Made by a program: the position numbers and the translations under genes | Part shown: piece after piece, positions 3,122 through 54,879 of the stretch | How positions within the stretch are numbered: the stretch's first letter is position 1 | Layout of the letters: every line of letters begins with the position of its first letter | DNA from: an uncultured Eubacteriales bacterium | Lineage (GTDB): Bacteria > Bacillota > Clostridia > Oscillospirales > CAG-272 | DNA length: 64,000 nt | Reading direction: 5' to 3' | Assembly: GCA_934446365.1 (NCBI GenBank) | Contig: CAKSDZ010000002.1 | Coordinates: 122,653-186,652 of the forward strand | The notes under the pieces: model-generated | What the model was told of the DNA's origin: nothing | Database searches by the model: none | Seen by the model: the letters and a program-made list of their open reading frames with translations, nothing else

Positions 3122-3163
3122 CCTTTCCGCATAAAAAGCGGAATATCCTTTCTTTTTATACTT

Positions 3164-3811
3164 TTATATAAATGATTTTATGATTTTGTATAAGTCTTCG
3201 GCATCCCCCGCCACATAGGCGGCGCCCGCTTTTTTGAGGACATCCTCGCCGCGGTACCCCCAAGAAACGCCGATGGGAAGCATTCCGGCGTTTTTCGCCG
3301 TCATCATATCGACGTCGGCATCGCCAATGAGCGTCGTCTCCTCCGGCTTCACATCAAAATTCTCAACAATCATAAAAGCCCGCGCCGGATTCGGCTTCAC
3401 CGGTACCTCCTTGACAGCCCCCCATATCGCATCAAAGGCACCCGGAAAAAGCGCTTCGGTCATCTCGCCGACATGCTCATGCTCCTTATTGGACAGTACA
3501 GCAAGCTTTATCCCCAACGCACGAAGCTTCGCCAGCAGCTCAGCAATACCGTCATATGCAGTCGTTTTATCAAAATAATGCTCGGCATAGGCGCTAAAAT
3601 AGGCTTCGGTCGCCTCATTCATGCGTACCTCATCAAAATCATCCGGCAAACACAGCCGAATAAAGCCTGCGTTATACACCGCATCAAGAACTTCCTTTTC
3701 CGTAATCGGCTCATATCCCAAACATGCGCGCATCAAGTTTACAGAAGTATGCCAATCCGGCAGCGTATTGGCCAACGTTCCGTCAAAATCAAAAATTGCC
3801 GCTTTTATCAT
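3164..3811 (-). CDS. HAD-superfamily hydrolase (phosphoglycolate phosphatase-like), paralog 1
   Basis: MIKAAIFDFDGTLANT (DxDGT motif) and GDADVDMMTAKNAG (motif IV). ATG at 3811 lies behind AAGGAG. Confidence 0.85.
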   Translation of the reverse strand: MIKAAIFDFDGTLANTLPDWHTSVNLMRACLGYEPITEKEVLDAVYNAGFIRLCLPDDFDEVRMNEATEAYFSAYAEHYFDKTTAYDGIAELLAKLRALGIKLAVLSNKEHEHVGEMTEALFPGAFDAIWGAVKEVPVKPNPARAFMIVENFDVKPEETTLIGDADVDMMTAKNAGMLPIGVSWGYRGEDVLKKAGAAYVAGDAEDLYKIIKSFI

Positions 3812-4063
3812 CAGCAATATCTCCTTATATGCGATTTCAGCTCCCTTTCAATATCTTCTCCGAAAACGGCACAATCCCTTTCAGCTAACGAAAACAATGT
3901 AAAAGCTTTTATATTTTCTGCTTAGCATCTGTTGGCCGCAATGTTTGAATACGGTACCAAGATTTATGTAGAAAACCATCATACTTTCATCCCATTATGG
4001 CAATAGCGCATTTTATATTTTCACCATTTCCATACATAAGGAGAATTTTCGGTTGCCATGCTT

Positions 4064-4717
4064 TTATATGATGGCTTTTGTAATCCTATACAATTCCTCC
4101 GAGTTAGCTGCCACATAGGCAGCGCCCGCTTTTTTGAGGACATCCTCGCTGCGGTACCCCCAAGAAACGCCGATGGGAAGCATTCCGGCGTTTTTCGCCG
4201 TCATCATATCGACGTCGGAATCCCCGACAAATGCCACCTCCTCCGGTTTCACGCCGAAATCCCGTGCGATCATAAAGGCACGGGCAGGGTCCGGCTTTAC
4301 CGGCACGCCTTCCACCGTTCCCCATATCGCGTCGAACGCGCCCGGAAAAAGTGTCTCGGTCATCTCGCCGACATGCTCGTTGTCCTTATTGGACATGACG
4401 GCAAGCCGGATGCCGTCCGCCCGAAGTCTTGCCAAAAGGCCGGCAACGCCCTCATACGGCGCCGTTTTGTCGAGATAATATTTGGCGTATGCGGCAAAAT
4501 AAGCCTCCACGGCCTCGTCCATACGCGCCTCGTCAAAATCGTCCGGCAGGCAAAGCCGGATAAACCGCACCGTCGCGTTGTTCACCGCGTGCAGGACTTC
4601 CTTTTCCGTAATCGGCTCATATCCGAAATGCGCGCGCATCAGGTTCAGCGAGGTACACAGGTCCGGCAGCGTATTGGCCAGCGTTCCGTCAAAATCAAAA
4701 ATTGCCGCTTTTATCAT
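4064..4717 (-). CDS. HAD-superfamily hydrolase, paralog 2 (tandem duplicate)
   Basis: MIKAAIFDFDGTLANTLPDL ... GDSDVDMMTAKNAGMLPIGVSWGYR. Collinear with the 3164-3811 product. ATG at 4717. Confidence 0.85.
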   Translation of the reverse strand: MIKAAIFDFDGTLANTLPDLCTSLNLMRAHFGYEPITEKEVLHAVNNATVRFIRLCLPDDFDEARMDEAVEAYFAAYAKYYLDKTAPYEGVAGLLARLRADGIRLAVMSNKDNEHVGEMTETLFPGAFDAIWGTVEGVPVKPDPARAFMIARDFGVKPEEVAFVGDSDVDMMTAKNAGMLPIGVSWGYRSEDVLKKAGAAYVAANSEELYRITKAII

Positions 4718-4913: not shown

Positions 4914-5576
4914 ATGGCAGAAGCAAAAACCTATTTCGCGGAATTTCCGGCGCTTTCGGACAGCGCCGCCATCGAGAATAGAATCCATGAAGTGTCAGAA
5001 GCGCGCCGGGAGCGCATCCGGACGGCCAAAAGACCGGAAACCCAAGCATCTCTGCTCGCGGCCGGCCTGATTCTCAACGCGGTCATGAAAAAGGAATTTG
5101 GGCTGTCGGAGTTCAAAATCGAAATCGGAGAGCACGGAAAGCCGTATCTTGCCGACCACAGGGAGATTCATTTCAACCTTTCCCACAGCGCGGCGGTCGT
5201 CGCATGCACCGTCTCCGATGTGGAATGCGGCGTCGATGTCGAAAAAATCGAGGCTTCGCACAACATGATGGGCATCGCCAACCGGTTCTTTTCCCTGCCC
5301 GAATATAACGCGATGCTGCTGTCGCAGAATCCGAAAGAGGCATTCTGCCGGCTGTGGACGCTGCGGGAAAGCTATGTCAAAATGCGCGGAATGGGCTTCG
5401 ATATCGGACTTTCCACGCTCCGCTGCGATTTCCACCGCGGCGTATGCTCGATTTACCAAGACGGAATTTTGCAGACCGACGCATTTTTCCATGAGTTCCG
5501 CAACATTTACGGCTATCGCGGCGCAGTATGCACCGCGAAGGAAGCCACACATGAAATCAGCCGGATTGAAATTTGA
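4914..5576 (+). CDS. 4'-phosphopantetheinyl transferase (Sfp type)
   Basis: GKPYL...FNLSHS...GVDVEKI...WTLRESYVKMRGMG motifs. ATG at 4914 follows GGGAGG. Confidence 0.8.
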   Translation: MAEAKTYFAEFPALSDSAAIENRIHEVSEARRERIRTAKRPETQASLLAAGLILNAVMKKEFGLSEFKIEIGEHGKPYLADHREIHFNLSHSAAVVACTVSDVECGVDVEKIEASHNMMGIANRFFSLPEYNAMLLSQNPKEAFCRLWTLRESYVKMRGMGFDIGLSTLRCDFHRGVCSIYQDGILQTDAFFHEFRNIYGYRGAVCTAKEATHEISRIEI

Positions 5577-5643
5577 ACGTCAAGCCGCGAAAAGCGCCGG
5601 ATCCCCGCACGTCTTTCCTTTTACAGAAGCATAAACCAACAGC

Positions 5644-5686
5644 AAAACGGAAGCTCCTTATTTTGATAAGGCGCTTCCGTTTTTTC
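5644..5686 (+). terminator. Intrinsic terminator after the PPTase gene
   Basis: ACGGAAGC...GCTTCCGT stem with inner CCTTA/TAAGG, followed by TTTTTT. Confidence 0.75.
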
Positions 5687-5689
5687 GGG

Positions 5690-5720
5690 AAAAAGAACGT
5701 CCGCCGCAAGCGGCGGATGC
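5690..5720 (-). terminator. Probable terminator of the ECF S-component gene
   Basis: TCCGCCGC-tt-GCGGCGGA hairpin followed on the minus strand by CGTTCTTTTT. Confidence 0.55.
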
Positions 5721-5726
5721 GTGTTT

Positions 5727-6302
5727 TTAATCTCTCAGATATTTCTTCTGCAGCATATCCGCCACCTTGGCCAGCAAAGCGACGATAATCATGGAGGCGA
5801 TGCCGCTGACAAGCATGGACAGTGCGCATCCGATCGACGCGACAATGACCACCTCGCGTTCATATTTCAGCACATATATCTTGAACAGATAACGGATAAC
5901 AGGCTCCGTCAGCACGTTGACCACCGTGGAAAGCGCCGCGACTGCGGCATATCTCCCGATAAGCCCTCCTGCGGAGATTTCCGTTTTTCTGCGAAACAGA
6001 AGTCCCGCAAAAAATCCCGCGGCCATGCCGAGAATCGCTTTTGCAATCAGCGTCGGAAAAGCGGAGGTGAAATATCCCGTAAGTAAATCGGACAGCATAA
6101 GGCCGACGCCGCCCACCGCCGCGCCGTAAACGGGTCCCAGCATGATTCCCGCAAGAATGACAAAAGCGTGACCGACATATATTTTTCCCGTACTATCGCC
6201 GATCGGGATTTCGAGCCGCAGATAGTCAAAGCAAATCAGCGCAAGCGCGGCAAGCATCGCGGCAATCACAAGTCGGCGCAGATAAAGTTTTCTTTTGTTC
6301 AC
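5727..6302 (-). CDS. ECF-transporter S component-like membrane protein (substrate unknown)
   Basis: 191 aa with about six hydrophobic helices; composition and size are typical of ECF S subunits. GTG start behind GGGAGGAG. Confidence 0.55.
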   Translation of the reverse strand: MNKRKLYLRRLVIAAMLAALALICFDYLRLEIPIGDSTGKIYVGHAFVILAGIMLGPVYGAAVGGVGLMLSDLLTGYFTSAFPTLIAKAILGMAAGFFAGLLFRRKTEISAGGLIGRYAAVAALSTVVNVLTEPVIRYLFKIYVLKYEREVVIVASIGCALSMLVSGIASMIIVALLAKVADMLQKKYLRD

Positions 6303-6379
6303 AGTAAGCTCCTCCCGGGCGGCTGTCAGAGCACGCTGCCGCCCGCACTTGATTTTTAGGATGATATGGAGTATACTGC

Positions 6380-6409
6380 AATATTGGATATAGAAAAATA
6401 TCCAATATT
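6380..6409. promoter_or_regulatory. Perfect 12-bp inverted repeat; candidate MocR operator
   Basis: AATATTGGATAT (6380-6391), 6-nt spacer, ATATCCAATATT (6398-6409), in the divergent intergenic region. Confidence 0.45.
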
Positions 6410-6453
6410 ATATTATTTTATCATACCAGATTTCAAAATCAGGAGAGTCGGTC

Positions 6454-7869
6454 ATGCTCACTTATATCTTGGAAAAAAAGAAAGGCGAGGCGCTTTATCG
6501 CTCGCTGTATCAGAAAATAAAGGAGGATATCGTCTCCGGCAGGCTCCGCTCCGGCGAAAAGCTGCCCTCAAAGCGAGCAATGGCGGAGCATCTCGGCGTC
6601 AGCTGCATCACGGTCGAAAACGCATACGAACAGCTCATTGCCGAAGGATATCTCCGTCCCGCGCAAAGAAAAGGATATTTTGTCGAGGAAATCCTGCCGT
6701 ATCCGCATCCGGCGGCAAAGCCGGTGCGGCATCTGCCGGAGGGCTGCGAAAAGCCGTCGGAAAGCTCCGATGTTCCGGTCGAGCTGGACCTTGCGGACAC
6801 CTCGGCAGACCCCGCCCGCTTCCCTTTCTCCATATGGATCAAGCTTTTGCGGCGGGTAACGCTCGACTGCCAAAAGGCGCTTTTGCGTCCGGTTCCGTAC
6901 AACGGGATTCCGGAGCTGCGGGAGGTCATCGCGGAGGATATCCGCCGCTCCCGCGGCATCGAAGCCTCGCCGGAACAAATCGTGCTGGGCGCCGGCACGG
7001 AATCCCTCTACAATTTATTGCTTCTCTTTTTCGGAAAGGAGAAGCGGTACGCGATCGAGAACCCCGGTTATCCGAAAATCCGAAAAATCTATCGGGCGGC
7101 AGGCGCGGATATCCGCGGAATTCCGCTCGACGATTCCGGCGTGAGCTTGGAAGCGCTGAACGAATCGGATGCCGATATCCTGCATATCTCGCCTTCCCAT
7201 CATTTTCCGACCGGAATCGTCATGCCCGCAAAACGGCGGCATGAGCTTTACGGCTGGGCGATGGAAAAGAAAGAGCGCTATATCATAGAGGACGATTATG
7301 ATTCCGAATTCGGATATTATGCGAAGCCCATTCCCGCGATACGAAGCATCGACCGCTCGGGGAAAATTCTCTATATGAATACCTTCACCAAAACGCTCGC
7401 GCCGTCCCTCCGTATCAGCTATATGGTGCTGCCGGAGGAAATCGCGAAAGCCTTTCGGGAAAAGCTCGGCTTCTTTTCCTGTCCGGTGCCGAGCTTTGAA
7501 CAATATACCCTCGCTTCTTTTATCGCGGAGGGCTATTTCGACCGACACATCAGCCGCATGCGCAAATATTACAGAGAGGTTCGCAGGCTTTTGACGGACG
7601 GACTTGGCGGCGCCGTTTCCTCAGGGAAAATTCAAATACGCGGAAAGGATTCCGGTCTGCATTTTCTCATGACGGTCGATACCACGCGTTCCGACGCGGA
7701 GCTATGCCGCCTCTTTCGAGGGCATGGCGTCAAAATCCGGGCGCTTTCGGAATTTATGTTCGAGAAAAAAAGCGATACGCACACGCTTCTTGTCAACGAT
7801 TCGTCTCTTTCGCCGGAGAGTGCCGCGGGAGCGGCGAAAAAAATTCTCGAATGCCTTTCCGACTGCTGA
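6454..7869 (+). CDS. MocR/PdxR-type regulator (GntR HTH fused to an aminotransferase-like PLP domain)
   Basis: N-terminus: YRSLYQKIKEDIVSGRLRSGEKLPSKRAMAEHLGVSCITVENAYEQLIAEGYL. This is followed by a ~350-aa fold-type I aminotransferase-like domain. Confidence 0.9.
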   Translation: MLTYILEKKKGEALYRSLYQKIKEDIVSGRLRSGEKLPSKRAMAEHLGVSCITVENAYEQLIAEGYLRPAQRKGYFVEEILPYPHPAAKPVRHLPEGCEKPSESSDVPVELDLADTSADPARFPFSIWIKLLRRVTLDCQKALLRPVPYNGIPELREVIAEDIRRSRGIEASPEQIVLGAGTESLYNLLLLFFGKEKRYAIENPGYPKIRKIYRAAGADIRGIPLDDSGVSLEALNESDADILHISPSHHFPTGIVMPAKRRHELYGWAMEKKERYIIEDDYDSEFGYYAKPIPAIRSIDRSGKILYMNTFTKTLAPSLRISYMVLPEEIAKAFREKLGFFSCPVPSFEQYTLASFIAEGYFDRHISRMRKYYREVRRLLTDGLGGAVSSGKIQIRGKDSGLHFLMTVDTTRSDAELCRLFRGHGVKIRALSEFMFEKKSDTHTLLVNDSSLSPESAAGAAKKILECLSDC

Positions 7870-7962
7870 ACATGCCCTTGCACGGAATACCGTCCGCCAA
7901 AAGGCGGAACCGCTACGGAAAAGCGTCTTGCACAAAAACAAAATTCCCCGATCAATCGCGTG

Positions 7963-8073
7963 TTCCATAGGGATTTTTCAGACGACGTAAAAGACTAACA
8001 AAATTTTCTTTGTTAGTCTTTATTTTTGTTTTGCAAATCACACACCTTTGCTCGCAAAGCATAGTGTGCTACC
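7963..8073 (+). repeat. ~110-bp conserved module, copy 1 (homologous to 45812-45925 in inverse orientation)
   Basis: By-eye alignment: TTCCATAGGGATTT, a 13-bp-stem hairpin (7990-8021), TTTTTGTTTTGCAAATCACACAC, hairpin CTTTGC/GCAAAG, then CATAGTGTGCTAC. Confidence 0.7.
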
Positions 8074-8108
8074 CTTTGAACAAGTAGTTGTTAAAACTAC
8101 ATTTATCT

Positions 8109-9152
8109 TTAATCAGTATAGGTGAAAAGCTCCCAAGGGATATCGACTTGTTTTTTCTCGCTTAAAATTTCATCAATATGTAATAATAATGGAAAATCTT
8201 CCTTTTTAAGAGTACCCTTTTTAATATTGATTTTTATTGCCTTTGCAACTCTTACGGCAACCACTAAAGATTCAAGCGTAACGCCTTTTAATTCTGCTTT
8301 TGCTTGGTCAATATCAAGGCCTTTTCCAAGCAAAACGCCGACAAGTCTTGTTCTGCCACCGTAAACGGTAACGTATAAATCGCCAACTCCTACGCAAAGG
8401 TTATTCAACGAGAGTGCATTTTGGAATTGTAAAAGTTTATACATTTCTTTTGTCGCTTGACCAAAAACAGCCGCTTGAGAGTTAAAATGTAAGGTATTGT
8501 CTTTGAAATTCTTTTGGTTTAATCCAATCGTAAGTGCTATACCTAACGCATATCCGTTTTTAAGAGCAACAGCGCTTTCAATTCCTACGACGTCGGTCGT
8601 GATACTTATATGGTAATAATCCGTTTGCATTATTTCTTTTAAGTATTGCAATACTTTTATATCATCGCCACAAAAAGTAACTTCGGTTTGGTCGTGCACC
8701 ACCAATTCATAGCTTGTACAAGGCCCGCCGATTGCATTAAGCGAAAGAGATTTATTGATGGATTTTAGTTTCTCTTTCCAAAAGCTTGGATAAGTGAATA
8801 ATTTCCCGTCGGGTGTATCTATAAGCCCTTTTGTAACGGTAAGTACTACTGCGGTTTCGGGGATAACGGGCAAAACCTTATCTGCAAACCAATCTACACC
8901 AAAGCTGCTAACGCCGCCAATAACGACGTTTGCGCCAACCAACGCCTTTTCTAACTCTTCAATTTGAAAAAATTCTATTCCCTTTGGGAATGGGATATCA
9001 AATTTAGGATGTTTATTATTTTGTAAACATTCATCGATTATTTCTCTATCCAAGTGCGTCCCAACGATTCTTACTGTGTGTCCGTTTTCTCTTGCGGGAA
9101 ATGCAAGTGCCGACCCCATCATACCCGCGCCAACTATCGTTACAATTGCCAT
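8109..9152 (-). CDS. NAD(P)-dependent glycerol-3-phosphate dehydrogenase-family protein, in an AT-rich island
   Basis: MAIVTIVGAGMMGSALAF Rossmann start and GpsA-like length. Codon usage and GC are clearly unlike the flanking DNA. Confidence 0.7.
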   Translation of the reverse strand: MAIVTIVGAGMMGSALAFPARENGHTVRIVGTHLDREIIDECLQNNKHPKFDIPFPKGIEFFQIEELEKALVGANVVIGGVSSFGVDWFADKVLPVIPETAVVLTVTKGLIDTPDGKLFTYPSFWKEKLKSINKSLSLNAIGGPCTSYELVVHDQTEVTFCGDDIKVLQYLKEIMQTDYYHISITTDVVGIESAVALKNGYALGIALTIGLNQKNFKDNTLHFNSQAAVFGQATKEMYKLLQFQNALSLNNLCVGVGDLYVTVYGGRTRLVGVLLGKGLDIDQAKAELKGVTLESLVVAVRVAKAIKINIKKGTLKKEDFPLLLHIDEILSEKKQVDIPWELFTYTD

Positions 9153-9295
9153 AAATACTCCTTATAATAAAATGAAAAATTTGAAAATTGTGATATAATC
9201 ATACTATATATTGAACACGAAATCAAGCAGTTTTTTTGTGGCGCAGTTTTTGAAAGATTTTCAAACTTTGCCAAAAGGAGAGTTTATGACTTTAT

Positions 9296-9449
9296 ATGAA
9301 TGACAAAATAAAATTTTAATTTTTTACAGCAACGGCAATTTGCAACGATTAAGAAATTGAGTAAAATCGTGTGAACGAGCGAATCTTCCATTCATCGCGA
9401 CTTAAAGGTGTTAGAAAGCAAAGGCTTCGTTAAAGGAGAGTTTTTATAA
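9296..9449 (+). pseudogene. Degenerate N-terminal fragment of a DeoR/GlpR-type HTH regulator
   Basis: Manual translation gives ...QQRQFATIKKLSKIV*TSESSIHRDLKVLESKGFVKGEFL*. This is a DeoR HTH pattern interrupted by stops and ending at the island edge. Confidence 0.45.
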
Positions 9450-9463
9450 AAGCCGATCCGGCG

Positions 9464-9784
9464 TTATAAAACCGTAAGCAATACCGCCGACAGAAGCAAA
9501 AGGCAAGAGGCGGTGCCAAGCATGCCGACCGCCATGCCGCGCTTTCCGGTGCGTCCAAAGAGCCGGCGCGCCACAAAGGAAACGGCCGCGCAAAGTGCAT
9601 CCCATATCACCGCAAACGGAGCCAGCAGCACAAGCAAAATCGAAAGCATGAGCTTCTTTCTCCGACTCTCTTTCCGGAGCGGCGCGCCGCTTTTCCGGTA
9701 TGGTGACGCAGCGCGCACCGGACATTCGACCGAATAGGAATATACCTTGCACCCTTCTATTATTCTATAATCACAGTTTCCCAT
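9464..9784 (-). CDS. Hypothetical protein: Cys-rich N-terminus plus two TM helices (alternative start 9649)
   Basis: GAGGTG RBS before the ATG at 9784. The C-terminal MLSILLVLLAPFAVIWDALCAAV...GMLGTASCLLLLSAVLLTVL is hydrophobic. A consensus promoter lies upstream. Confidence 0.4.
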   Translation of the reverse strand: MGNCDYRIIEGCKVYSYSVECPVRAASPYRKSGAPLRKESRRKKLMLSILLVLLAPFAVIWDALCAAVSFVARRLFGRTGKRGMAVGMLGTASCLLLLSAVLLTVL

Positions 9785-15065: not shown

Positions 15066-15098
15066 CGCACCGGAAACTCCGGTGCGGTTTTCTTTTTT
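15066..15098 (+). terminator. groEL intrinsic terminator
   Basis: CGCACCGGA-aac-TCCGGTGCG followed by TTTTCTTTTTT. Confidence 0.9.
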
Positions 15099-15890
15099 CT
15101 CCTTTGAAAAGGAGAAGATACGTGCTTTTCTCACTGAGGAGAAAAGCACCAAAAGACTCACCGAGACGCTGTCTCGGACTCTCAATCTTCTGCTGGGAAG
15201 CGCATACCTACGGCTCCCAACAGTTGTTTGCTCTCGCTTCGCTCGGCAAGCCAACATTCGCCGTGCGGGAAGTTTGTGCGACTGGGAAGCTCGCGTCCGC
15301 AGGCGCAAGGCTTTCGGAGCGCACTCGCTGCCCGTTCGGCGTGTTCCGCCGTGGCTTGCGTACCTCTGTGGTACGCAAACACGTGCCGGGAGCCGACGGG
15401 ATATACTCTCGGATTGCACCAACGGTCAAGCCGAAGGCTTGCAGTTCTTTTGATGCTTTTCTTTCTGTAAAGAAAAGCATGCGTTCTCTCCTTTGCAAAG
15501 GAGAAGATATGTGCTTTTCTCACTGAGGAGAAAAGCACCAAAAGACTCACCGAGACGCTGTCTCGGACTCTCATTCTTCTGCTGGGAAGCGCATACCCAC
15601 GGCTCGAAAGGTGTTGCAGTGCTCGCACAGGCCACCACTCCCCGTGCGGCAAGCAACTGCGACTGGGAAGTTTGCGCCCGCAGGCGCAAGGCTTTCGGAG
15701 CGCACTCGCTGCCCGTTCGGCGTGTTCCGCCGTGGCTTGCGTACCCTCTGTGGTACGCAAACTGGGAGCCGACGGGATATACTCTCGGATTGCACCAACG
15801 GTCAAGCCGGAGGCTTGCGGCTTCTTTTCGTCCTTTTCTTGTCCGCACAAGAAAAGAACATGTTTCTCTCCTTTGAAAAAGGAGAAAGAA
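15097..15890. repeat. Tandem array of a ~390-bp hairpin-dense repeat (unit A 15097-15484, unit B 15485-15863, terminal partial hairpin 15864-15890)
   Basis: The units align along their length. The same family recurs at 33545-34345. Reading frames are not conserved between units. Confidence 0.9.
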
Positions 15891-33518: not shown

Positions 33519-33546
33519 TTCCGCCATATAGGCGGATTTTTCTTTT
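33519..33546 (+). terminator. pdxK intrinsic terminator
   Basis: TCCGCC-atata-GGCGGA followed by TTTTTCTTTT. Confidence 0.85.
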
Positions 33547-34345
33547 CTCCTTTCCAAAGGAGAAAGATATGTGCTTTTCTCACTGAGGAGAAAAGCACCA
33601 AAAGACTCACCGAGACGATGTCTCGGACTCTCATCGTGCTACTGGGAAACACATACACACGGCTCCCAACAGTTGTTTGCTCTCGCTTCGCTCGGCAAGC
33701 CAACATTCGCCGTGCGGAGAGCATCTGCCACTGGAAACCCGCGCCCGCAGGCGTAAGGCTACCGGATTGCACTCGCTGCCCGTTCGGCGTGTTCCGCCGT
33801 GGATTGCACGAGTTTACCGAGTGCAAACACGTGTCGGGAGCCGACGGAATACATTTTCGGCCCGCACTAACGGTCAAGCCGCAGGCTTGCAGTTCTTTTG
33901 ATGCTTTTCTTTCTGCAAAGAAAAGCATGCGGTTTCTCCTTTCCAAAGGAGAAGATGTGTGCTTTTCTCACTGAGGAGAAAAGCACCAAAAGACTCATCG
34001 AGACGCTGTCTCGGACTCTCATCGTGCTGCTGGGAAGCGCATACACACGGCTCCCAACAGTTGTTTGCTCTCGCTTCGCTCGGCAAGCCAACATTCGCCG
34101 TGCAGAAATTTTGTGCCACTGGAAAGCTCGCGCCCGCAGGCGCAAGGCTGCCGGATTGCACTCGCTGCCCGTTCGGCGTGTTCCGCCGTGGATTGCACGA
34201 GTTTACCGAGTGCAAACACGTGTCGGGAGCCGACGGAATACATTTTCGGCCCGCACTAACGGCCAAGCCGAAGGCTTGCAGTTCTTTTGATGCTTTTCTT
34301 TCTGCAAAGAAAAGCATGCGGTTTCTCCTTTCCAAAGGAAAAAGA
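33545..34345. repeat. Second tandem array of the ~390-bp repeat family (unit C 33545-33933, unit D 33934-34322, terminal partial hairpin 34323-34345)
   Basis: Collinear with 15097-15890, in the same orientation and with the same three-hairpin junctions. Confidence 0.9.
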
Positions 34346-43975: not shown

Positions 43976-45168
43976 AAAAATCACTTTCCCTCTTTCTGAC
44001 CGCCTGCCTCTGTATCGTCCTGCTCTGCGCCTGCACGGAACAGCCGTCACCGCCTCCGCCGGGGACGGAAAACGCGCCCATAACCGACGCCGACAGATCC
44101 GAGGAGAGCATGGCGCAGTCATCACAAAATACAGAAACGCCGCCGGCTGTCACCCAAGCCGATACCGAGACGGAAAGCGGTGAAAAAGCGCCGGATATCA
44201 TCTCCGGAGCCGAAATTTTGAGATTTCCCTATGCCGACGGCATTCTGTTTGAACAGCTCGGCGCGGCGGCGTCCTCGCAGGACACGTCCGTCATACGGAT
44301 CCGAACCGAAAAAGATTTCCGCGAGTTTTTGGAAGAAGCGGCAGCTTTCATTCAGAAAATGGGCGGATACGGGTATGATTTCGATGCGTCCCGCCTGTCG
44401 TCCGCATATGACGAAGCCTTTTTCGCGGAACGCTCGCTTCTCGTCTTTCAGCTCTCCGCGGAAAGCGGCTCCATCCGTTACCGCAATCCGAATATCTCCT
44501 ATGACAAAAGCACCGACACCATCGCGGTGACGGTAGAAAAATGCATTCCCGAGGCCGGCACCTGCGACATGGCCTCATGGCTCTTGCTTGTGCCTCTTGA
44601 AGCCGACATGGCTGAGGCGGAAACCGTCCGGCTTTCGGTGAGCGTGATAAGGGAGGGCACAGATATCTCCGAACCGACAAGCATACAAAGCGATGCGGAA
44701 GGCGTCTATATCACCCGCATTTCCTATGTCGATCATAAGGAAGTATTAAACAACATCCCTTATGAAACGATATCCGCCAATACCGGTACTGCATTTTCTC
44801 TGATGCGTTTTTCCCGCTGGGAAGAGTTTTCCGCATGGAAAGAGGAAAATCTCCTCCCACATGAAAGCGTGAAAGGATACGGGCAGGACGGTCAAGCGAC
44901 GACGGCTGCCGCGGTTTTCGACGAAGCTTTCTTTGAAGAAAACGCGCTTTTTGTCCTGCTTTGGAGTGAATCAAGCGGCTCTTATTCTCATGAGTTCCGG
45001 AGCGCTACATGCGACAAGGCCGGAGAGGTCACCGTCGTGGTGCAGACCACCCGTCCGCAGCTTCACACAGATGACATGGCCTCGTGGCTTCTGTTCCTGC
45101 CGATAAAACCGGAATATGCCGACACGGAATCGGTCAGCATTCTGATTTCGATTCAAGACACAGAATAA
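43972..45168 (+). CDS. Hypothetical lipoprotein with an internally duplicated ~110-aa domain
   Basis: MKKSLSLFLTACLCIVLLCAC lipobox. Two copies of the pattern DEAFF-E--L-V---SES-GS...DK...V-V....DMASWLL--P. Confidence 0.65.
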   Translation: MKKSLSLFLTACLCIVLLCACTEQPSPPPPGTENAPITDADRSEESMAQSSQNTETPPAVTQADTETESGEKAPDIISGAEILRFPYADGILFEQLGAAASSQDTSVIRIRTEKDFREFLEEAAAFIQKMGGYGYDFDASRLSSAYDEAFFAERSLLVFQLSAESGSIRYRNPNISYDKSTDTIAVTVEKCIPEAGTCDMASWLLLVPLEADMAEAETVRLSVSVIREGTDISEPTSIQSDAEGVYITRISYVDHKEVLNNIPYETISANTGTAFSLMRFSRWEEFSAWKEENLLPHESVKGYGQDGQATTAAAVFDEAFFEENALFVLLWSESSGSYSHEFRSATCDKAGEVTVVVQTTRPQLHTDDMASWLLFLPIKPEYADTESVSILISIQDTE

Positions 45169-45339
45169 CAAAAAAGAGAGCGTCTCCGCAGTTCCCATAG
45201 GGATTTAAGTTTAATAACGGCAAAACTTGCCTTTTCAAAAGTCGAGTTTTCTTTTACGCACGCAAAACTGCTTTAATATAATTTGTTTTTATGGTAAAAT
45301 AAACCCACCGATAAAAGGGAATTTATAGAATAGTAGGAT

Positions 45340-45780
45340 ATGAAGAAAATGAGTAATACCTTAAGAATCATTAAGAATGTGGAAAATATAAAAGAACATA
45401 ACAATGTTGCGTTAGAGTGTGATTTAATATGTGAATGCGGAAATAAATACTTTAAAATATATCATTCCGGAAAACAAACCAAAGGTATATTTGCCCCTTA
45501 TTTAGTTAAAAGCAATCATCAAATAGTTATTGAAGGAAAATGCACATGTTGTGAAAAGAGTATTGTAATTTTTGATAGCAGCCTTGACGGAACAAAAAAA
45601 TGCGAATTAAGTAAAACTCCTAAACAATTATTTAATATTTTAAACGATATTTACGCCTATAAAATTCATTTAATGTATAACTACTATGAAAACAATTTCA
45701 GAACAAACTTGTTTGAGGACTGTTTCATAGAAATATCCAATAGTAAATTCAAAAAGCCACGTCGCTTGTATGAAGGATGA
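45340..45780 (+). CDS. Hypothetical Cys-rich (CxxxCxC ... CxCC) 146-aa protein; cargo of the cassette
   Basis: MKKMSNTLRIIKNV...CDLICECGNKYFKIYHSGKQ...GKCTCCEKSIVIFD. AT-rich codon usage unlike the host genes. GGA-rich RBS (aatagtaggatATG). Confidence 0.55.
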   Translation: MKKMSNTLRIIKNVENIKEHNNVALECDLICECGNKYFKIYHSGKQTKGIFAPYLVKSNHQIVIEGKCTCCEKSIVIFDSSLDGTKKCELSKTPKQLFNILNDIYAYKIHLMYNYYENNFRTNLFEDCFIEISNSKFKKPRRLYEG

Positions 45781-45811
45781 TAAGAATATATTAGAAAAAC
45801 ACTTTCAAAAG

Positions 45812-45925
45812 TGTAGCACACTATACTTAACAGAGTTAAGTCGTGTGTTTTTGCAAAGCAAAAAGGAAAAGACTAACGAAAATTTTCGTTAGTCTTTTAT
45901 ACTATCTAAAAAATCCCTATGGGAA
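45812..45925 (-). repeat. ~110-bp conserved module, copy 2 (inverse orientation relative to 7963-8073)
   Basis: Contains the 32-nt perfect palindrome AAAAGACTAACGAAAATTTTCGTTAGTCTTTT (45867-45898), hairpin CTTAAC/GTTAAG, GTAGCACACTAT, and the terminal AAATCCCTATGGGAA. Confidence 0.7.
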
Positions 45926-45951
45926 ACGACCCTTCCACGCTCTCTTTTTTG

Positions 45952-47673
45952 TTAAATCTGGTATTTCGCAAGCTCGTTTTTCACAATTTCCGCAATCTTT
46001 TCCGCAGCTTCCGCAATCGGAAATTCGCCCTTCCACGATTTGTCGCGCAGGGAAACCTCGACAACACCGCGCTCGCAGGTTTTCGGCGACACGACGGCGC
46101 GCACCGGAATGCCGAACAAATCCGCATCCGCGAACATCGCGCCGGGACGGATATTGCGGTCGTCGTAAAGCACCTCGATTCCCGCCGACTGCAAGGCTTC
46201 ATACAGACGGTCCGCCGCCGCGCTCACGACTGCGTCGTCACAGCGGAGATTGCAGACCTCCACCTGCCACGGGGCGATGGACATCGGCCAAATGGGGCCG
46301 TAATCGTCGTGGCTTTCCTGGCAGATAGAAGCGCAAAGCCTTCCGATGCCGATGCCGTAGCAGCCCATAATCGGATTTTTCGCCTCTCCGTCCGCATCAA
46401 GATAGGTCATGCCCATCGATTTCGTATATTTGGTTCCGAGCTGGAAGATGTTCCCGACCTCGATTCCCTTTTGAATGGTAATCACCGGTTTTCCGCAGGA
46501 CGGGCATACCGCGCCCGCGTAAATCTTCGCAACATCGACATAGTTGACGTCCCCGATATCGCGCGCGATGTTGAAGCCCGTATAGTGATAATCCGTCTCG
46601 TTCGCGCCGCAGACGAGATTGCAGGCTCCGGCAAGAGAACGGTCCCAAACGACCGTAACCCCGTCGGGAAGTCCGAGCGCACCGATAAAGCCCGCGACGA
46701 TGCCGCTTTCCTCCGTGATGACCGCCGGATGGAATTCACCCCCGAGGAAATTGCGCAGCTTGGTCTCATTGACGTCGAGATCGCCGCGGATAAAGACGAT
46801 GACGTAGGAATCGTCCGCATTTTTCTGATAAACGACCGCCTTGCAAAGGCGTTTTTCGTCCGCATCGAGGAATTTTGCCAAATCATCGATGGTTTTTGCA
46901 CCGGGCGTATGGATTTTGGTGAGCGGCGCGTCCTCTGCCTGTCCGTTTTTCACGATGCATTCCGCCGCCTCCATATTCGCCTTATAGCCGCACTCCGGAC
47001 AAATGGCGAGCGTATCCTCTCCGATTTCGGAAAGCAGCATGAATTCATGCGACACACTGCCGCCCATCATGCCGGAATCCGATTTGACCGCGATGACGTT
47101 TTTTGCGCCGGCACGGCGGAAAATGCGCTCATACGCCTCGTAGCAGCGCTCATAATAGGCTTCCAGATCCTCCTGCGACGTGTGGAACGAATAGGCGTCC
47201 TTCATGGTAAATTCACGCACGCGAATCAGTCCCCCGCGTGCACGCGGTTCGTCGCGGAATTTCGTCTGAATCTGATAAATCATAAACGGAAAATCCGCAT
47301 AGGATTTCGCCGTATCGCGCGCGAGGTGGACGGCCGCCTCCTCGTGCGTCATGCCGAGCACCATGTTGTTGCCGCCTCTGTCCTTGAAGCGCGCCATCTC
47401 GCTGCCGATGCTCGTATACCGGCCTGACTGCTCCCACAGCGTCGCCGGCATCACCACGGGAAACAGCACCTCCTCGCCGTCGATGCGGTCCATCTCCTCA
47501 CGGATGATTTTTTCGATTTTGGACGTGATCCGTTTTGCCGGCGTAAACAGAGAATAAATCCCGTTTCCCACGTATTTCATATAGCCACCGCGCATCATGA
47601 GCGCATGACTTGCAATCACACAGTCTTTCGGCGCTTCCTTGAAGCGTTCGCCGAGCATTTTGGCAACTTTCAT
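45952..47673 (-). CDS. proS: Prolyl-tRNA synthetase
   Basis: HALMMRGGYMKYVGNGIYSLFTPAKRI...FRDEPRARGGLIRVREFTMKDAYSFH. Confidence 0.97.
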   Translation of the reverse strand: MKVAKMLGERFKEAPKDCVIASHALMMRGGYMKYVGNGIYSLFTPAKRITSKIEKIIREEMDRIDGEEVLFPVVMPATLWEQSGRYTSIGSEMARFKDRGGNNMVLGMTHEEAAVHLARDTAKSYADFPFMIYQIQTKFRDEPRARGGLIRVREFTMKDAYSFHTSQEDLEAYYERCYEAYERIFRRAGAKNVIAVKSDSGMMGGSVSHEFMLLSEIGEDTLAICPECGYKANMEAAECIVKNGQAEDAPLTKIHTPGAKTIDDLAKFLDADEKRLCKAVVYQKNADDSYVIVFIRGDLDVNETKLRNFLGGEFHPAVITEESGIVAGFIGALGLPDGVTVVWDRSLAGACNLVCGANETDYHYTGFNIARDIGDVNYVDVAKIYAGAVCPSCGKPVITIQKGIEVGNIFQLGTKYTKSMGMTYLDADGEAKNPIMGCYGIGIGRLCASICQESHDDYGPIWPMSIAPWQVEVCNLRCDDAVVSAAADRLYEALQSAGIEVLYDDRNIRPGAMFADADLFGIPVRAVVSPKTCERGVVEVSLRDKSWKGEFPIAEAAEKIAEIVKNELAKYQI

Positions 47674-51739: not shown

Positions 51740-52189
51740 TTATCCGTTTTTCTCCATAACAAAATTGACAAGAAGAATGCCGCGCCGTTCAACCCGCTGC
51801 TCTCTGACAACCTGATAGCCGCGCTTTTCAAAAAAAGGTCTTGCCGTAACAGAAGCGTGTGTGATGACCTTTCCCGGAACCGCCTGCTCCAATTCATCGC
51901 AAAGGACAGTGGCGACGCCTTGCCTCTGATAATCCTTATGGACATACAGCCGGTCGAGATAGCCCGTTTTATCGATATCCCCAAAGCCTATGACGGTTTT
52001 ATCCGTTTCCGCGACAAAGCAAAAATGCTCCGAAAACGAACGGCTCCATTTTTCCGGCTCCATATCGTCCGGCGCCCACGCATTCACCTGCTCGCTTGTA
52101 TAATCCTTTATATTGACGGCATGAACCGTGTCGTAAAACAACCCGTAAAGTTTCCTGCAATCTTCCGGACGGTATTTTCTGATGATCAT
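51740..52189 (-). CDS. GNAT-family N-acetyltransferase
   Basis: RLYVHKDYQRQGVATVLCDELE acetyl-CoA binding motif. Confidence 0.85.
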   Translation of the reverse strand: MIIRKYRPEDCRKLYGLFYDTVHAVNIKDYTSEQVNAWAPDDMEPEKWSRSFSEHFCFVAETDKTVIGFGDIDKTGYLDRLYVHKDYQRQGVATVLCDELEQAVPGKVITHASVTARPFFEKRGYQVVREQRVERRGILLVNFVMEKNG

Positions 52190-52345
52190 GCGCCAAACAT
52201 CTCTCTTTTCAAAGAAGGATATCGGTATTTAGTCGTATCAAATACATTCTTTTCGCAGCTTCATATTAACGCTTTCACCAAATTTATTATATTATATAAT
52301 TTGTTTTATTTCAAGATAAGAAAGGCAAAAGAAAGAAAATTCTTC

Positions 52346-52380
52346 CGAAAAATAAAAAGCACCCGGTGAGATGGGCGCTT
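52346..52380 (-). terminator. rpsT terminator
   Basis: Minus strand AGCGCCC-atctcacc-GGGTGCT (one G-U pair) followed by TTTTTATTTTT. Confidence 0.7.
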
Positions 52381-52401: not shown

Positions 52402-52668
52402 TCAGCCGTTCATACGGTTGAGCATGGAAGTAAATCTGCTCTTTTTTCTTGCGGCATTGTTCTTGTGAAGAATACCGTGAGCAACTGCCTGGTCGATCTT
52501 CTTGACAGCCTGCTTGTAGGTCTCCTGGGCGGCAGCTTTGTCGCCTGCTGCCACAGCGGCTTCATATTTTTTGAGATCGGTTTTGAGAGCGGATTTGAAC
52601 ATCTTGTTTTGAAGCGTCTTCGTCTCGATGACCTTAACGCGCTTTTTCGCTGACTTAATATTCGGCAC
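52402..52668 (-). CDS. rpsT: 30S ribosomal protein S20
   Basis: PNIKSAKKRVKVIETKTLQNKMFKSALKT. AAGGAGG abuts the track start, so the GTG at 52668 is preferred. Confidence 0.93.
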   Translation of the reverse strand: MPNIKSAKKRVKVIETKTLQNKMFKSALKTDLKKYEAAVAAGDKAAAQETYKQAVKKIDQAVAHGILHKNNAARKKSRFTSMLNRMNG

Positions 52669-52827
52669 TGTATACACCTCCTTGTTGGTTCTGATAAAAT
52701 CGGGAAACCGCCATGAGAGGGTGGCGTCCTGCCCTTTTTATCTGCATTTACTGTTTTATCATATCATTTATTTCGGCAAATATCAATAGGTTTTTCAAAA
52801 AATATTTGAAAGAATTTCCGATATTCG

Positions 52828-53538
52828 CTATTCCTTTTTCTTTTTAAAGGAAAATTTAGACTCTTCTCCCGCAATCAGGCGCTGGATATTCTTCCGATGG
52901 AGGAACACGACAAGCGCCGCCATCAGAATCGTACAGATAATCGACGCGGGAGGCGGCGGCGAAAACCAAAACGGCATAATGCTGTTGCAGACGGGAATGA
53001 GAAGCGATCCGATAATGGAACCGAGCGAGACATATCCCGAAAGCGCCACCGTCAGCACGAAAACAATCATGAGAAAGATCCACGCCGGCGGATTGATGAC
53101 GAGCACCACGCCGGCAAGGCTTGCGACGCATTTTCCGCCGCGGAAGCCGAAAAAGATCGGAAACGCATGTCCGATAAGGCACATAAACCCGGAAATGAAC
53201 GCAAAGCCGGTATACCACGGCATAACAAGAAGTCCCATCGCCGTCGCGACGAAAGATTTTGTAAAGTCTCCGGCAAAGGTCAAAAGCGCGGATTTAACCC
53301 CATAGGTACGCAGCATATTGGTCGAGCCGGCGTTGCCGCTTCCATGGTCCCTCACATCGTCGGCATACATTTTGCGCGAAAAAATAACCGCGAAATTGAT
53401 GCTGCCGAGCAGATACGGAACGACGACACACAGCACGGCGCAAATGGCAAACACCATCGGATTGTCCGCATATCCAAGCTCGCCGATAAGTCCGTTCCAA
53501 ATGAGCTTCGGCAAGCCCGAAAGTTCTGATGAATCCAT
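52828..53538 (-). CDS. plsY: Glycerol-3-phosphate acyltransferase PlsY
   Basis: GSINFAVIFSRKMYADDVRDHGSGNAGSTNMLRTYG. Confidence 0.93.
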   Translation of the reverse strand: MDSSELSGLPKLIWNGLIGELGYADNPMVFAICAVLCVVVPYLLGSINFAVIFSRKMYADDVRDHGSGNAGSTNMLRTYGVKSALLTFAGDFTKSFVATAMGLLVMPWYTGFAFISGFMCLIGHAFPIFFGFRGGKCVASLAGVVLVINPPAWIFLMIVFVLTVALSGYVSLGSIIGSLLIPVCNSIMPFWFSPPPPASIICTILMAALVVFLHRKNIQRLIAGEESKFSFKKKKE

Positions 53539-53553
53539 ATGATTCCCCTCCGT

Positions 53554-54879
53554 TTATTCGTCGCCCTTTTGGCGAATGACAAAGCGTATCGGCGTTCCGG
53601 TAAAGCCGAACACCTCACGCAGCTTATTTTCGAGATAACGCTGATAAGAGAAATGGAAAAGCTCCGCATCGTTGCAGAAAATGACGAAGGTCGGCGGCCT
53701 TACGCCCGATTCCGTCATATAGTAAATTTTCAGTCTCCGCCCCTTATCGGTCGGCGGCTGAACCCTTGTCACCGCGTCGGAAAGCACATCGTTGAGCATT
53801 CCCGTGGAAATCCGCAGGGACGCCTGCTCATTTACGTATACGATATGCTCAAAGAGCTTCGGCAGACGCTGCCCCGTTTTCGCGGATATGAAAAGAATCG
53901 GCGCATACGGCATATAGGCAAGCGCCGTCCGGATTTTATCGGTATAGCTCTTGACCGAGGAATTATCTTTCTCGACAAGGTCCCACTTGTTCACGACGAT
54001 GATGCACGCCTTCCCCGCCTCATGGGCGATACCCGCGATTTTTTCGTCCTGCTCGGTAATGCCCTCCGCAGCGTCGATGAGAATCAGACACACATCCGCA
54101 CGTTCCACCGCGGAATGCGCGCGCAGCACGCTGTATTTCTCGATTTTGTCGAGGACGCGGCTCTGTCTGCGAATGCCAGCGGTATCGATAAAGGTGAACT
54201 TCCCGTATTCGTTTTCGACAAAGCTGTCGATGGCGTCGCGCGTGGTGCCGGCCATGTCGGAAACGATCATGCGGTCCTCGCCCAAAATCCGGTTAACAAG
54301 CGAGCTTTTTCCCGCATTCGGCTTGCCGATGACCGCCACCTTGATGGAATCGTCCTCCTCCGCCGGCGCGTCGTCTGCCGGAGAAAGCTCCAAAATCCGG
54401 TCGAGCAGGTCGCCCGTTCCCGTTCCGTGAACGGAAGAGAGGGCGATCGGGTCCCCGTCGAAGCCAAGCTCATAAAATTCATAATATTCCAGCGGCAGCG
54501 CGCCCACGGAATCGATTTTATTCACACACAGAATCACAGGCTTCCCGCTCTTGATTAACATCACCGCGATGTCGCGGTCGTCGGCGGTGACGCCCGCATG
54601 GATGTCGCACATGAAAACGATGACGTCGGCGGTCTCGATTGCGATTTCCGCCTGTGTTTTCATTTTTTCGAGGATCATATCGTCCGTTTTCGGCTCGATT
54701 CCGCCCGTGTCGATAAGCACAATCGGCTTGCCGTTCCATTCGGTTTCATAATAGATGCGGTCGCGCGTCACGCCCGGCACATCCTCCACAATGGATATGC
54801 GGGAGCCGGCAATTTTATTAAAAAGCGTGCTCTTGCCGACGTTCGGACGTCCGACAATCGCCGCCACGGTCTTTGCCAT
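53554..54879 (-). CDS. der: Ribosome-biogenesis GTPase Der (EngA)
   Basis: Two G domains: GRPNVGKSTLFN and GKPNAGKSSLVN, plus a KH-like C-terminus. Confidence 0.97.
   Translation of the reverse strand: MAKTVAAIVGRPNVGKSTLFNKIAGSRISIVEDVPGVTRDRIYYETEWNGKPIVLIDTGGIEPKTDDMILEKMKTQAEIAIETADVIVFMCDIHAGVTADDRDIAVMLIKSGKPVILCVNKIDSVGALPLEYYEFYELGFDGDPIALSSVHGTGTGDLLDRILELSPADDAPAEEDDSIKVAVIGKPNAGKSSLVNRILGEDRMIVSDMAGTTRDAIDSFVENEYGKFTFIDTAGIRRQSRVLDKIEKYSVLRAHSAVERADVCLILIDAAEGITEQDEKIAGIAHEAGKACIIVVNKWDLVEKDNSSVKSYTDKIRTALAYMPYAPILFISAKTGQRLPKLFEHIVYVNEQASLRISTGMLNDVLSDAVTRVQPPTDKGRRLKIYYMTESGVRPPTFVIFCNDAELFHFSYQRYLENKLREVFGFTGTPIRFVIRQKGDE

Follow-up and report, generated by a model that had tools for sequence, protein, structure and literature searches.

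What is the AT-rich block that lies between a MocR gene and an XRE-S24/106-aa gene pair in the genome of an uncultured Eubacteriales bacterium, and by which route did it get there? The window considered here is the whole stretch of 64,000 nt of that genome that was analysed; all coordinates are positions in it, and labels of the form L0xx designate comparison loci from other assemblies. The block, termed the island below, extends from about 7959 to 9434 and holds a gene of the glycerol-3-phosphate dehydrogenase (G3PDH) family next to the remnant of a DeoR/GlpR-type repressor gene. The comparisons presented here favour, with a probability of about 0.8, that the island is the right-hand two thirds of a non-autonomous cassette that was inserted into the loop of the MocR terminator and later truncated, with its cargo gene being kept. 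A preliminary description of the sequence had regarded the island as an older, eroded or one-ended insertion, an interpretation that is supported and to which the terminator-loop target and the wide spread of the family are additions.

Composition and boundaries of the island

In 300-nt windows, the GC content at ~7900-9400 is 0.33-0.43, against 0.50-0.65 on either side (0.52-0.55 upstream, at 7300-7900, and back to 0.54 downstream, at 9400-9700). Among 1-kb bins, the two lowest values of the window are those of 8001-9000 (0.373) and 45001-46000 (0.344), and the remainder range from 0.48 to 0.61. Both profiles bear out the sharp drop relative to the two flanks that had been claimed for the block. 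Codon composition is equally atypical: the GC content at third codon positions (GC3) of the 347-aa open reading frame (ORF) inside the island is 0.33, which is 4.5 standard deviations (sd) under the host mean (0.62, sd 0.064, for the other 48 long ORFs). The extent first given, 7963-9449, therefore stands as far as the low-GC block is concerned, but its edges are refined to ~7959, by comparison with an empty site, and to ~9434/9435.

The edge on the MocR side carries the end motif TTCCATAGGGATTT at 7963-7976, of which one-mismatch copies occur at 45193(+) and 45911(-). When up to two mismatches are allowed, five matches are found in the window against 0.52 expected, a number that 0 of 100 shuffles reached, and the same relaxed search finds no matching inverted repeat on the far side of the island, in agreement with the preliminary description. 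About 130 nt are common to 7957-8088(-) and 45797-45930(+), with 81% identity and in opposite orientation, and a covariance model built from 34 copies yields two strong matches only in the window, of 119 and 145 bits. The presence of the motif and of a conserved module at the start of the island was thus read correctly, as was its membership, by the shared right-end module and terminal repeat, in the same family as a cassette at 45 kb. The island and its borders comprise the following features.

7932-7958 (+): host 5' half of the MocR intrinsic terminator, with an A-run, the stem AAAATTCCCCGAT and the loop start CAATCG (from the alignment with the empty site in L073)
7959-7979 (-): right-end terminal inverted repeat (TIR), reverse complement GAAAAATCCCTATGGAACACG (from repeat matches and the empty-site comparison)
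7957-8088 (-): conserved right-end module, which separates the cargo stop codon from the terminal repeat (118.6 bits with covariance model R1, E 3e-23)
7990-8021 (no strand assigned): hairpin B, AAAGACTAAC...GTTAGTCTTT, whose 13-bp stem stands between an A-run and a T-run (terminator-like site on the plus strand)
8039-8072 (-): hairpin A, with (G/A)TAG, an outer stem CACAC/GTGTG and a variable inner stem (RNAalifold, 34 copies)
8109-9152 (-): intact 347-aa gene of the NAD-dependent glycerol 3-phosphate (G3P) dehydrogenase family (Pfam PF01210, PF07479)
9153-9285 (no strand assigned): divergent promoter region, AT-rich, that separates the cargo gene from the DeoR remnant and is homologous to the intergenic region of L018
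9286-9434 (+): pseudogene of the DeoR/GlpR family, residues 1-50 (helix-turn-helix, HTH) only (tblastn with the intact 237-aa DeoR of L018)
9435-9463 (no strand assigned): deletion junction, followed by the host terminator of the 106-aa gene, GCCGATCCGGC (window 9380-9500 aligned with L073 8470-8560)

Insertion into the MocR terminator and later truncation

Homologs of the MocR gene further out were found in L075 (91% identity) and in L073 (78%). In L073, which is part of a 683-kb scaffold, most neighbouring genes match those of the window in order and orientation over most of the 15 kb compared, on both sides, and the MocR gene is separated from the 106-aa gene by 116 bp only. This short interval holds a perfect terminator, AAAAACAGGATATCCCGA-gccatcggca-ATCGGGATATCCTGT, whose 13-bp stem is uninterrupted and without scar. 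In the window, the 3' half of the hairpin is missing, and the remnant of its 5' half is followed directly by the element end CGTGTTCC-ATAGGGATTT, with the boundary at 7959 being good to about 2 nt. An intact hairpin in the relative, and a 5' half that runs straight into an element end in the window, therefore indicate an insertion into the loop of the MocR terminator. The same comparison shows that the block is not uniformly present in relatives, the matter that a synteny analysis of the MocR-to-XRE interval had been proposed to settle. The XRE-S24 and 106-aa genes do adjoin the island, as first described, but they are also present at the empty site; the pair is ordinary host DNA and lies outside the element.

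What the island has lost becomes apparent from an intact unit in L018, which extends over ~5009-7184, with a left core repeat at 5017-5032, a right core repeat at 7161-7176, ~14 outer nucleotides on each side and the same right-end module. L049, from another metagenome-assembled genome (MAG) of the Christensenellaceae, carries the same 2.18-kb DeoR+G3PDH unit with 97% identity, and in both the order is TIR, DeoR gene, G3PDH-like gene, ~130-nt hairpin module, TIR. Outward of each core repeat, the two remain similar for ~14 nt and then pass into unrelated flanks; the unit therefore moves as a block. The island of the window is colinear with L018 5722-7175, at 75% identity, and by this comparison it has lost ~700 bp of the cassette, namely DeoR residues 51-237 and the left terminal repeat. 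By comparison with L073, ~30 bp of host DNA are also gone, including the 3' half of the MocR terminator. The same truncated island occurs in L027 (the GTDB species representative 'Eubacteriales bacterium MAG4602'), where 3.2 kb align gap-free at 93% identity, and in L075 the three genes stand in the same order and at the same distances from one another. Since L027 shares the truncation, the insertion and the deletion are both older than that split. No empty allele was found within the species, as all contigs with the exact MocR, XRE-S24 or G3PDH-like proteins carry the island, and all those with exact flanking proteins carry both this island and the 45-kb one. Taken together, the empty site, the intact units and the shared truncation bear out an old and one-ended insertion.

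The following course of events would account for these observations. The intact form would have been a unit of ~2.18 kb, bounded by TIRs, with a DeoR/GlpR repressor gene divergent from the G3PDH gene and a right-end module made of hairpin A, a small hairpin and hairpin B. Drawn from a pool of low-GC cassettes shared among Christensenellales-like gut Clostridia, it would have entered the apical loop of the MocR terminator in the ancestor of the host species and of the L027 and L075 lineages. A later deletion would have taken the left repeat together with most of DeoR and the host terminator's 3' half, leaving the copy immobile, and the loss of the repressor would have left the cargo gene without control, the gene then being kept by selection.

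The sister cassette at 45 kb

The second low-GC bin of the window corresponds to an intact member of the family, which also lies in a split terminator.

45187-45937 (+): intact cassette, with the left repeat CGCAGTTCCCATAGGGATTT, a left module and promoter, a 146-aa Cys-rich ORF, the right module and the right repeat
45170-45186 and 45938-45951: split terminator, AAAAAAGAGAGCG-TCTC and CGCTCTCTTTTTT, respectively

The gene upstream of this cassette encodes a 398-aa protein with few homologs, of which a 75%-identical ortholog is present in L071 and L072. In these loci the ortholog and proS are 34 bp apart, with the terminator CAGAAAAAGAGAGCG-TCTC-CGCTCTCTTTTTCTG between them, and the window reads ...AAAAAAGAGAGCG-TCTC-[CGCAGTTCCCATAGGG ... 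CCCTATGGGAAACGACCCTTCCA]-CGCTCTCTTTTTTG, so that the element (in single brackets) has the loop on one side and the 3' stem on the other. The two junctions have no more than an ambiguous CGC in common, which limits the precision of the termini to within 3 nt, and therefore no real target duplication is present. The GC3 of the 146-aa ORF is 0.27. The same terminator loop holds a different insertion in L068 (5205-5248) and L070 (1345-1404), which carry an 85% ortholog; there the insertion has an end reading TGAACTGCCCC... and starts TGAACTGCCCCAAATTGTGCGGACAGTAC, which we take to resemble an end of the IS3 family of insertion sequences (ISs). The L068 contig stops ~30 nt into that other insertion. 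Different insertions seem to have terminator loops in common as landing sites.

A family of cassettes with common ends and interchangeable cargo

The reach of the family was explored by pattern scans. One scan of species-representative genomes, with a pattern combining hairpin B and the repeat, gave 44 loci among the matches listed, nearly all of them titled Christensenellaceae, 'Candidatus Scatosoma', Eubacteriales or Clostridia and coming from the gut of humans or ruminants; one MAG, JAZTZE01 (SGB_6417), holds at least three copies. When metagenomes were scanned with the repeat on its own, 17 matches yielded 13 further true ends (9 right and 4 left), and about 11 metagenome loci show the ends of the family. 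In total there are ~55 more copies, with ~25 different and unrelated cargo types between the same ends. The module always lies 3' of a short AT-rich block of one or two genes, whose GC content (0.26-0.37) is below that of the flanks every time, and the 19 copies with a recognisable left repeat measure 0.4-2.9 kb. TIRs are present at both ends in L018, L049, the 45-kb cassette and 17 others, whereas the window island has the right repeat only, owing to its deletion.

According to Pfam, the cargo includes an N6-methylase fused to a specificity domain, an EcoRI-type methylase with a GmrSD-HNH nuclease, an HTH-serine dehydratase, an esterase, an AraC protein with a Cass2-like domain, a nucleotidyltransferase, a HAD hydrolase, GrpB, GNAT, a SUKH-1 immunity protein, a 23S-IVS protein with a methyltransferase, DUF3885, an LCM methyltransferase, a xylose-isomerase-like barrel, a cyclase, a PF03601 membrane protein and several proteins without a family. 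The DeoR-G3PDH cassette combines the standard right module with a left part of its own. In ~15 of 23 copies the left module is itself conserved: the repeat is accompanied by a terminator-like hairpin, AAACTCGACTTTT..AAGTCGAGTTTTC, by a promoter of the form TTGAAT-17-TGnTATAAT and by a conserved 5' untranslated region (5' UTR).

The terminal repeats are ~20-24 bp long and share the invariant core ATAGGGATTT (the core repeat is also written CCCATAGGGATTT); the core AAATCCCTAT of the island's repeat is invariant throughout the family. Past AAATCCCTAT, conservation extends over positions +1 to +10 (GGGAAGAGCG) and is strongest at +8 (G) and +9 (C). Further out on the right flank, positions +12 to +14 are A/T-rich, +16 to +22 form a variable GC-rich 7-mer and +23 to +34 a T-run, and the left flank mirrors this arrangement with an A-run. 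The two flanks pair over at least 9 nt in 11 of the 21 complete copies, and flanks of the same copy pair better than mismatched ones (p = 2e-4). Moreover, of the 29 flanks that adjoin an ORF, 25 look onto a host gene from its 3' side. To judge from these flanks, the split-terminator pattern that is seen directly at two sites is the pattern of most of the family. Each end brings a terminator, and insertion would therefore replace the host terminator that it splits, with the neighbouring genes being little disturbed.

A direct repeat longer than 3 bp is absent from both sites with a known empty allele (the island and the 45-kb cassette), and visual inspection of the flanks listed for the remaining complete copies reveals none either. 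Copies occur singly rather than in arrays, with short remnants of a second copy only in L033 and L066. In L066 (4900-4935) and ~100 nt past the right end in L033, right-end fragments ...TCTTAAAAACCCCTATGGGAAACGC lie just outside complete cassettes and look like what is left of earlier insertions into these same places. Of two cassettes with the same right-end module, L038 has CAGACGG on the left and CCGTCTG on the right (a CAGACGG...CCCGTCTG-type pairing), and L061 has CAGACGG on the right; on that side the two loci thus carry reverse-complementary 7-mers, which may be a coincidence. Three further candidates were discarded. The outer stems might have travelled with the element, since L018 and L049 both have CACCC/GGGTG, but copies with the same cargo (L043/L054/L065 and L024/L041/L051) have unrelated stems. 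A conserved loop as target was sought as AAAK/RTAA-type unoccupied terminators in 0.5 Mb of loci, and only AT-rich chance matches were obtained. A supposed tandem second cassette in L032 is the host terminator only.

Structure of the right-end module

The right-end module of the island has a fold z-score of -3.9, and no Rfam family was assigned to it at gathering or permissive thresholds. Its hairpin A owes its conservation to pairing: at three inner pairs, both sides have changed in 8, 12 and 7 of the 34 copies, and double changes occur in the outer stem too (RNAalifold). A small hairpin, TTTTGC-AAA-GCAAAA, is visible by eye between hairpins A and B. The pairs of hairpin B are invariant apart from three G-C to A-U swaps, an invariance that is partly forced by the search pattern in the genome set, and some metagenome copies have a different stem at the same place. 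The form of hairpin B is that of a two-way terminator, which would halt transcription of the cargo gene as well as transcription entering from MocR; the terminator-like site predicted at 7990-8021 is on the plus strand, which is the MocR strand.

The cargo gene and its lost repressor

The two genes first read in the island, a G3PDH-family gene whose 3' end faces the module and a DeoR/GlpR-like HTH remnant with in-frame stops, were both recovered. Both domains of the cargo protein score above the Pfam gathering thresholds and together span its full length: NAD_Gly3P_dh_N (PF01210, E 1e-13) and NAD_Gly3P_dh_C (PF07479, E 6e-18). Against NCBIfam, the best score with a GpsA model is 99.2 bits vs a cut-off of 423 (NF000941), and the protein is below the cut-off in all 13 models (equivalog cut-offs 202-603). 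Its closest solved structure is the Archaeoglobus G3PDH 1TXG (E 5e-46). Like GpsA, the protein has an N-terminal Rossmann domain and a C-terminal substrate domain; unlike GpsA, it stays under the equivalog cut-off. On these matches, it is classed as a member of the G3P-dehydrogenase superfamily that is divergent from canonical GpsA. The ratio of nonsynonymous to synonymous substitution rates (dN/dS) is 0.125 in the comparison with L027 and L075, and the gene is therefore in use and under purifying selection.

The repressor has met a different fate. The remnant matches residues 1-50 of the intact DeoR by tblastn (24 of 39 residues identical in the best block, E 6e-15) and is interrupted by stops at codon 6 and residue 30 and by a frameshift near residue 11; at the nucleotide level, homology to L018 ceases at ~9406. 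Promoter-like sites occur on both strands of the divergent region 9153-9285, as for example TTGATT-17-TATGAT at 9226-9198(-), and expression of the cargo gene in the window is probably constitutive because the repressor is dead.

Homologs of the cargo protein with 80-87% identity are common in metagenome assemblies of Clostridia/Christensenellaceae and sit beside an intact DeoR gene in genomes of 35-43% GC. This comparison, which the preliminary description had suggested, supports a low-GC Clostridia lineage as the donor of the island. At three loci, in three different neighbourhoods, the G3PDH-like gene is divergent from an intact gene for a DeoR/GlpR-type protein of 237-239 aa, and in L019 a co-directional gene for a glycerophosphodiester phosphodiesterase (GDPD) comes next and overlaps it by 4 nt. 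The DeoR/GlpR pairing and the GDPD neighbour make a catabolic rather than a housekeeping role plausible, that is, conversion of G3P to dihydroxyacetone phosphate, or use of G3P or glycerophosphodiesters. L019 (5140-7853 and 10836-13056, of low GC) carries a native DeoR-G3PDH pair without the module, with a MazEF pair and a large serine recombinase ~4 kb away. In the window, der (EngA), plsY and rpsT follow one another on the minus strand at 52402-54879, without a canonical gpsA beside plsY, and the cassette-borne gene might have replaced the housekeeping gpsA.

How the cassettes might move

An enzyme that moves the family was looked for in several places. A Pfam census of the ~25 cargo types revealed no transposase or recombinase inside the copies, and no integrase was seen among the neighbouring genes with Pfam calls or those scanned in the window and comparison loci. 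Genes for HUH (Y1) enzymes and RAYT were not found; neither DEDD nor IS3-type genes were detected, nor, by Rfam, a bridge RNA or seekRNA. Genome, metagenome and viral scans with exact patterns found, among the matches listed, no cognate autonomous element with the same repeats. Viral contigs gave no match to either the module pattern or the repeat, and phage and plasmid collections no blastn match to the module.

Several observations weigh against the reading of the island as a truncated, mobile cassette. ORF clustering found no recurrent transposase ORF in ~600 kb of flanks, and no recombinase was found among the window ORFs scanned with Pfam. For the outer 8-14 nt of the repeats there are three variants, found on either side, and the exact termini are good to a few nucleotides. 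About one third of the complete copies have flanks that do not pair, which may reflect later rearrangements between copies, and the empty sites seen directly are two only. Both window copies are fixed in every metagenome contig of the species examined, and no ongoing mobility is evident. Finally, at 45929-45937 the 45-kb cassette has nine extra nucleotides, ACCCTTCCA, between the right repeat and the 3' terminator stem, which are absent from the empty site and outside the repeat consensus.

Because no enzyme gene was found in the copies, the flanks or the scanned ORFs of the window, mobilisation in trans is proposed, by an unlinked enzyme that would recognise the terminal repeats. Such an enzyme would link the repeats, with no target duplication, to DNA that can fold into a hairpin or cruciform, probably by way of an excised intermediate, in which the abutted ends would form the palindrome ...CCCTATGGGAAGA-GC-TCTTCCCATAGGG... 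and the right-to-left junction of the excision product would read ...AAATCCCTATGGGAAGAG[C/CG]CTCTTCCCATAGGGATTT.... A symmetric site of this kind would suit a dimeric conservative recombinase or a single-strand enzyme that recognises hairpins.

Four other explanations were weighed. A derivative of a DDE transposon, that is, a mobile insertion cassette (MIC) or a miniature inverted-repeat transposable element (MITE) with a passenger, moved by a cognate IS with the same repeats and making target duplications of 2-3 bp, would agree with the TIRs and the absent transposase. The CGC shared by both 45-kb junctions can be read as a 3-bp duplication, a 2-bp duplication could hide in the self-complementary CG/GC tips of the repeats, and in L068 and L070 the corresponding terminator loop holds an unrelated element whose end is IS3-like, which also fits. 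Yet, if the CGC is a duplication, the tips of the 45-kb cassette are no longer inverted repeats. Furthermore, the tips are the most variable part of the repeats and the subterminal core is invariant, a pattern opposite to that of most DDE ends, and a cognate IS with these repeats is absent among the 44 genome loci, the 17 metagenome loci and the viral contigs, so that this origin is considered unlikely. Movement as single-stranded DNA by an HUH (Y1) enzyme, after the manner of IS200/IS605 derivatives or of repetitive extragenic palindrome (REP) and REPIN sequences moved by RAYT, would explain insertion into a hairpin loop without target duplication. The core of each repeat is a mini-palindrome (TCCC-ATA-GGGA), a nearly invariant (G/A)TAG precedes hairpin A on its 5' side, which is the arrangement of REP sequences, and the structure is kept by compensatory change rather than by sequence. 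However, IS200/IS605 elements have no TIRs and insert beside a fixed tetra- or pentanucleotide, whereas the cassettes have clear repeats, and no fixed tetranucleotide was seen beside them at the two known sites (TCTC^CGCT and TTGC^CGAT); the two window copies are in opposite orientation on the same replichore, as judged by skew (n=2), and no Y1 gene was found. This mode of movement is likewise considered unlikely.

Two alternatives remain. Were the hairpin module an attC site, the units would be integron gene cassettes, and their single promoter-proximal ORFs with a structured 3' element, their cargo typical of integrons (GNAT, nucleotidyltransferase, Cass2-like AraC, SUKH immunity, restriction-modification and small proteins of no assigned function) and the hairpin B halves GACTAAC / GTTAGTC, which by eye match RYYYAAC / GTTRRRY at 6/7, would all be in keeping. 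The boundary, however, as defined by copies of the same cassette and by the empty sites, lies at the terminal repeat, ~45 nt past hairpin B, whereas that of an integron cassette falls inside the attC site (R''-L''...L'-R'), with the crossover at G|TT of R'. The copies, moreover, are solitary, have their own promoter, are targeted to a terminator loop instead of attI or attC and show no integrase. In their survey, Cury et al. 2016 (PMC4889954) found no Firmicutes genome with a complete integron, which also speaks against an origin of this type, and it is judged highly improbable. The island might, alternatively, never have been mobile, being ancestral host DNA of odd composition that was deleted in the L073 lineage, or a product of homologous recombination, or a phage moron; its fixation in all contigs of the species and its presence in two other lineages would be expected in that case. 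This is very hard to credit given that L073 has an uninterrupted 13-bp-stem terminator and not a scar, that the same block with both repeats stands in unrelated contexts in L018 and L049, that the GC3 is 4.5 sd below the host mean and that the phage, plasmid and viral collections searched gave no match.

Within the preferred reading of a trans-mobilised cassette, a broader and tentative proposal can be formulated, which is held with less than even confidence: the family, of which the island would be a fossil, could represent an undescribed cassette system of Christensenellales-like gut Clostridia with a role like that of integrons in Proteobacteria, in which a dedicated, unlinked recombinase that recognises DNA structure (hairpin or cruciform) rather than sequence places units from a common pool in terminator loops, with no duplication of the target. 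The units would then consist of a terminator, a consensus promoter, a 5' UTR, an interchangeable ORF, a three-hairpin 3' module and a terminator, and hairpin A with its (G/A)TAG foot would serve recognition or regulation.

Implications and other features of the window

Two compositional islands of this host genome are explained by the cassettes, and in one of them the horizontal gain of a G3PDH-like gene can be dated relative to lineage splits and followed into its domestication, with the regulator lost and the gene kept. More generally, cassettes without a transposase and with a standard chassis of promoter and terminator would home to terminator loops in abundant and poorly cultured gut bacteria. 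If so, a cassette system of the Firmicutes would offer genes a new path of spread through the gut microbiome, and an enzyme that inserts into terminator hairpins, without duplication and with little harm to the neighbours, would be a potential tool; both depend on finding that enzyme.

Elsewhere in the window, two tandem HAD-hydrolase paralogs, ~78% identical and at a spacing of 900 bp, are found at 3158-4357, where L073 has one only. Units of ~389 bp are repeated at 15095-15830 and 33544-34342, with 63-100% identity to the reference copy and with palindromes such as GTGCTTTTCTCACTGAGGAGAAAAGCAC; groEL lies immediately upstream of the first set, and the gene calls there differ between L014 and L015. 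The region 51740-52369 has a mildly low GC content (0.43) and a 149-aa ORF that reads as acetyltransferase-like, and the cassette motifs were not found in it. The window has no tRNA or tmRNA genes.

Comparison with known mobile elements

Searches of the literature for terminator-targeting cargo elements, for Christensenellaceae cassettes and for the motif strings returned nothing relevant, and the family appears not to have been described previously. The nearest kinds of element are MICs, integron cassettes and ISs that target hairpins. MICs such as MIC231 of the Bacillus cereus group have short TIRs, passenger genes, target duplications and a known parent IS. Like these and like MITEs with cargo, the cassettes bound one or two passenger genes by short TIRs, carry no transposase and are presumed to be mobilised in trans. 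They differ in the lack of a target duplication, in that no cognate IS was found, in the combination of variable tips with an invariant core, in their insertion into terminator loops, and in the conserved left (terminator, promoter, 5' UTR) and right (three-hairpin) modules that surround the interchangeable cargo. With integron cassettes they share the form of a pool of small, AT-rich and mostly single-gene units with diverse accessory cargo and a structured 3' element. Unlike integron cassettes, they are solitary at many chromosomal terminators, have their own promoter and are bounded by TIRs, with neither an attC-type boundary nor an IntI being seen.

Hairpins are also the target of several ISs and introns: IS1397 and ISKpn1 enter the loops of REP and bacterial interspersed mosaic elements (BIMEs), IS110/IS1111 elements enter REP sequences, attC sites and transposon repeats, and class C group II introns use terminators. 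IS110/IS1111 elements produce no target duplication and have subterminal inverted repeats. The likeness resides in the intergenic stem-loop as target, to which the lack of a duplication can be added for IS110/IS1111, and the targets of the cassettes have structure in common and not sequence. These other elements, however, encode their own transposase or reverse transcriptase, and class C introns insert after the terminator and not in its loop. The REP/REPIN system with its RAYT (TnpA_REP) enzyme resembles the cassettes in its inverted palindromic repeats, its extragenic position near gene 3' ends, the (G/A)TAG motif and the expectation of an unlinked, single-copy enzyme. The two differ in scale and content, as REPINs are ~100 nt long and free of genes, whereas the repeats of the cassettes stand 0.4-2.9 kb apart around expressed cargo.

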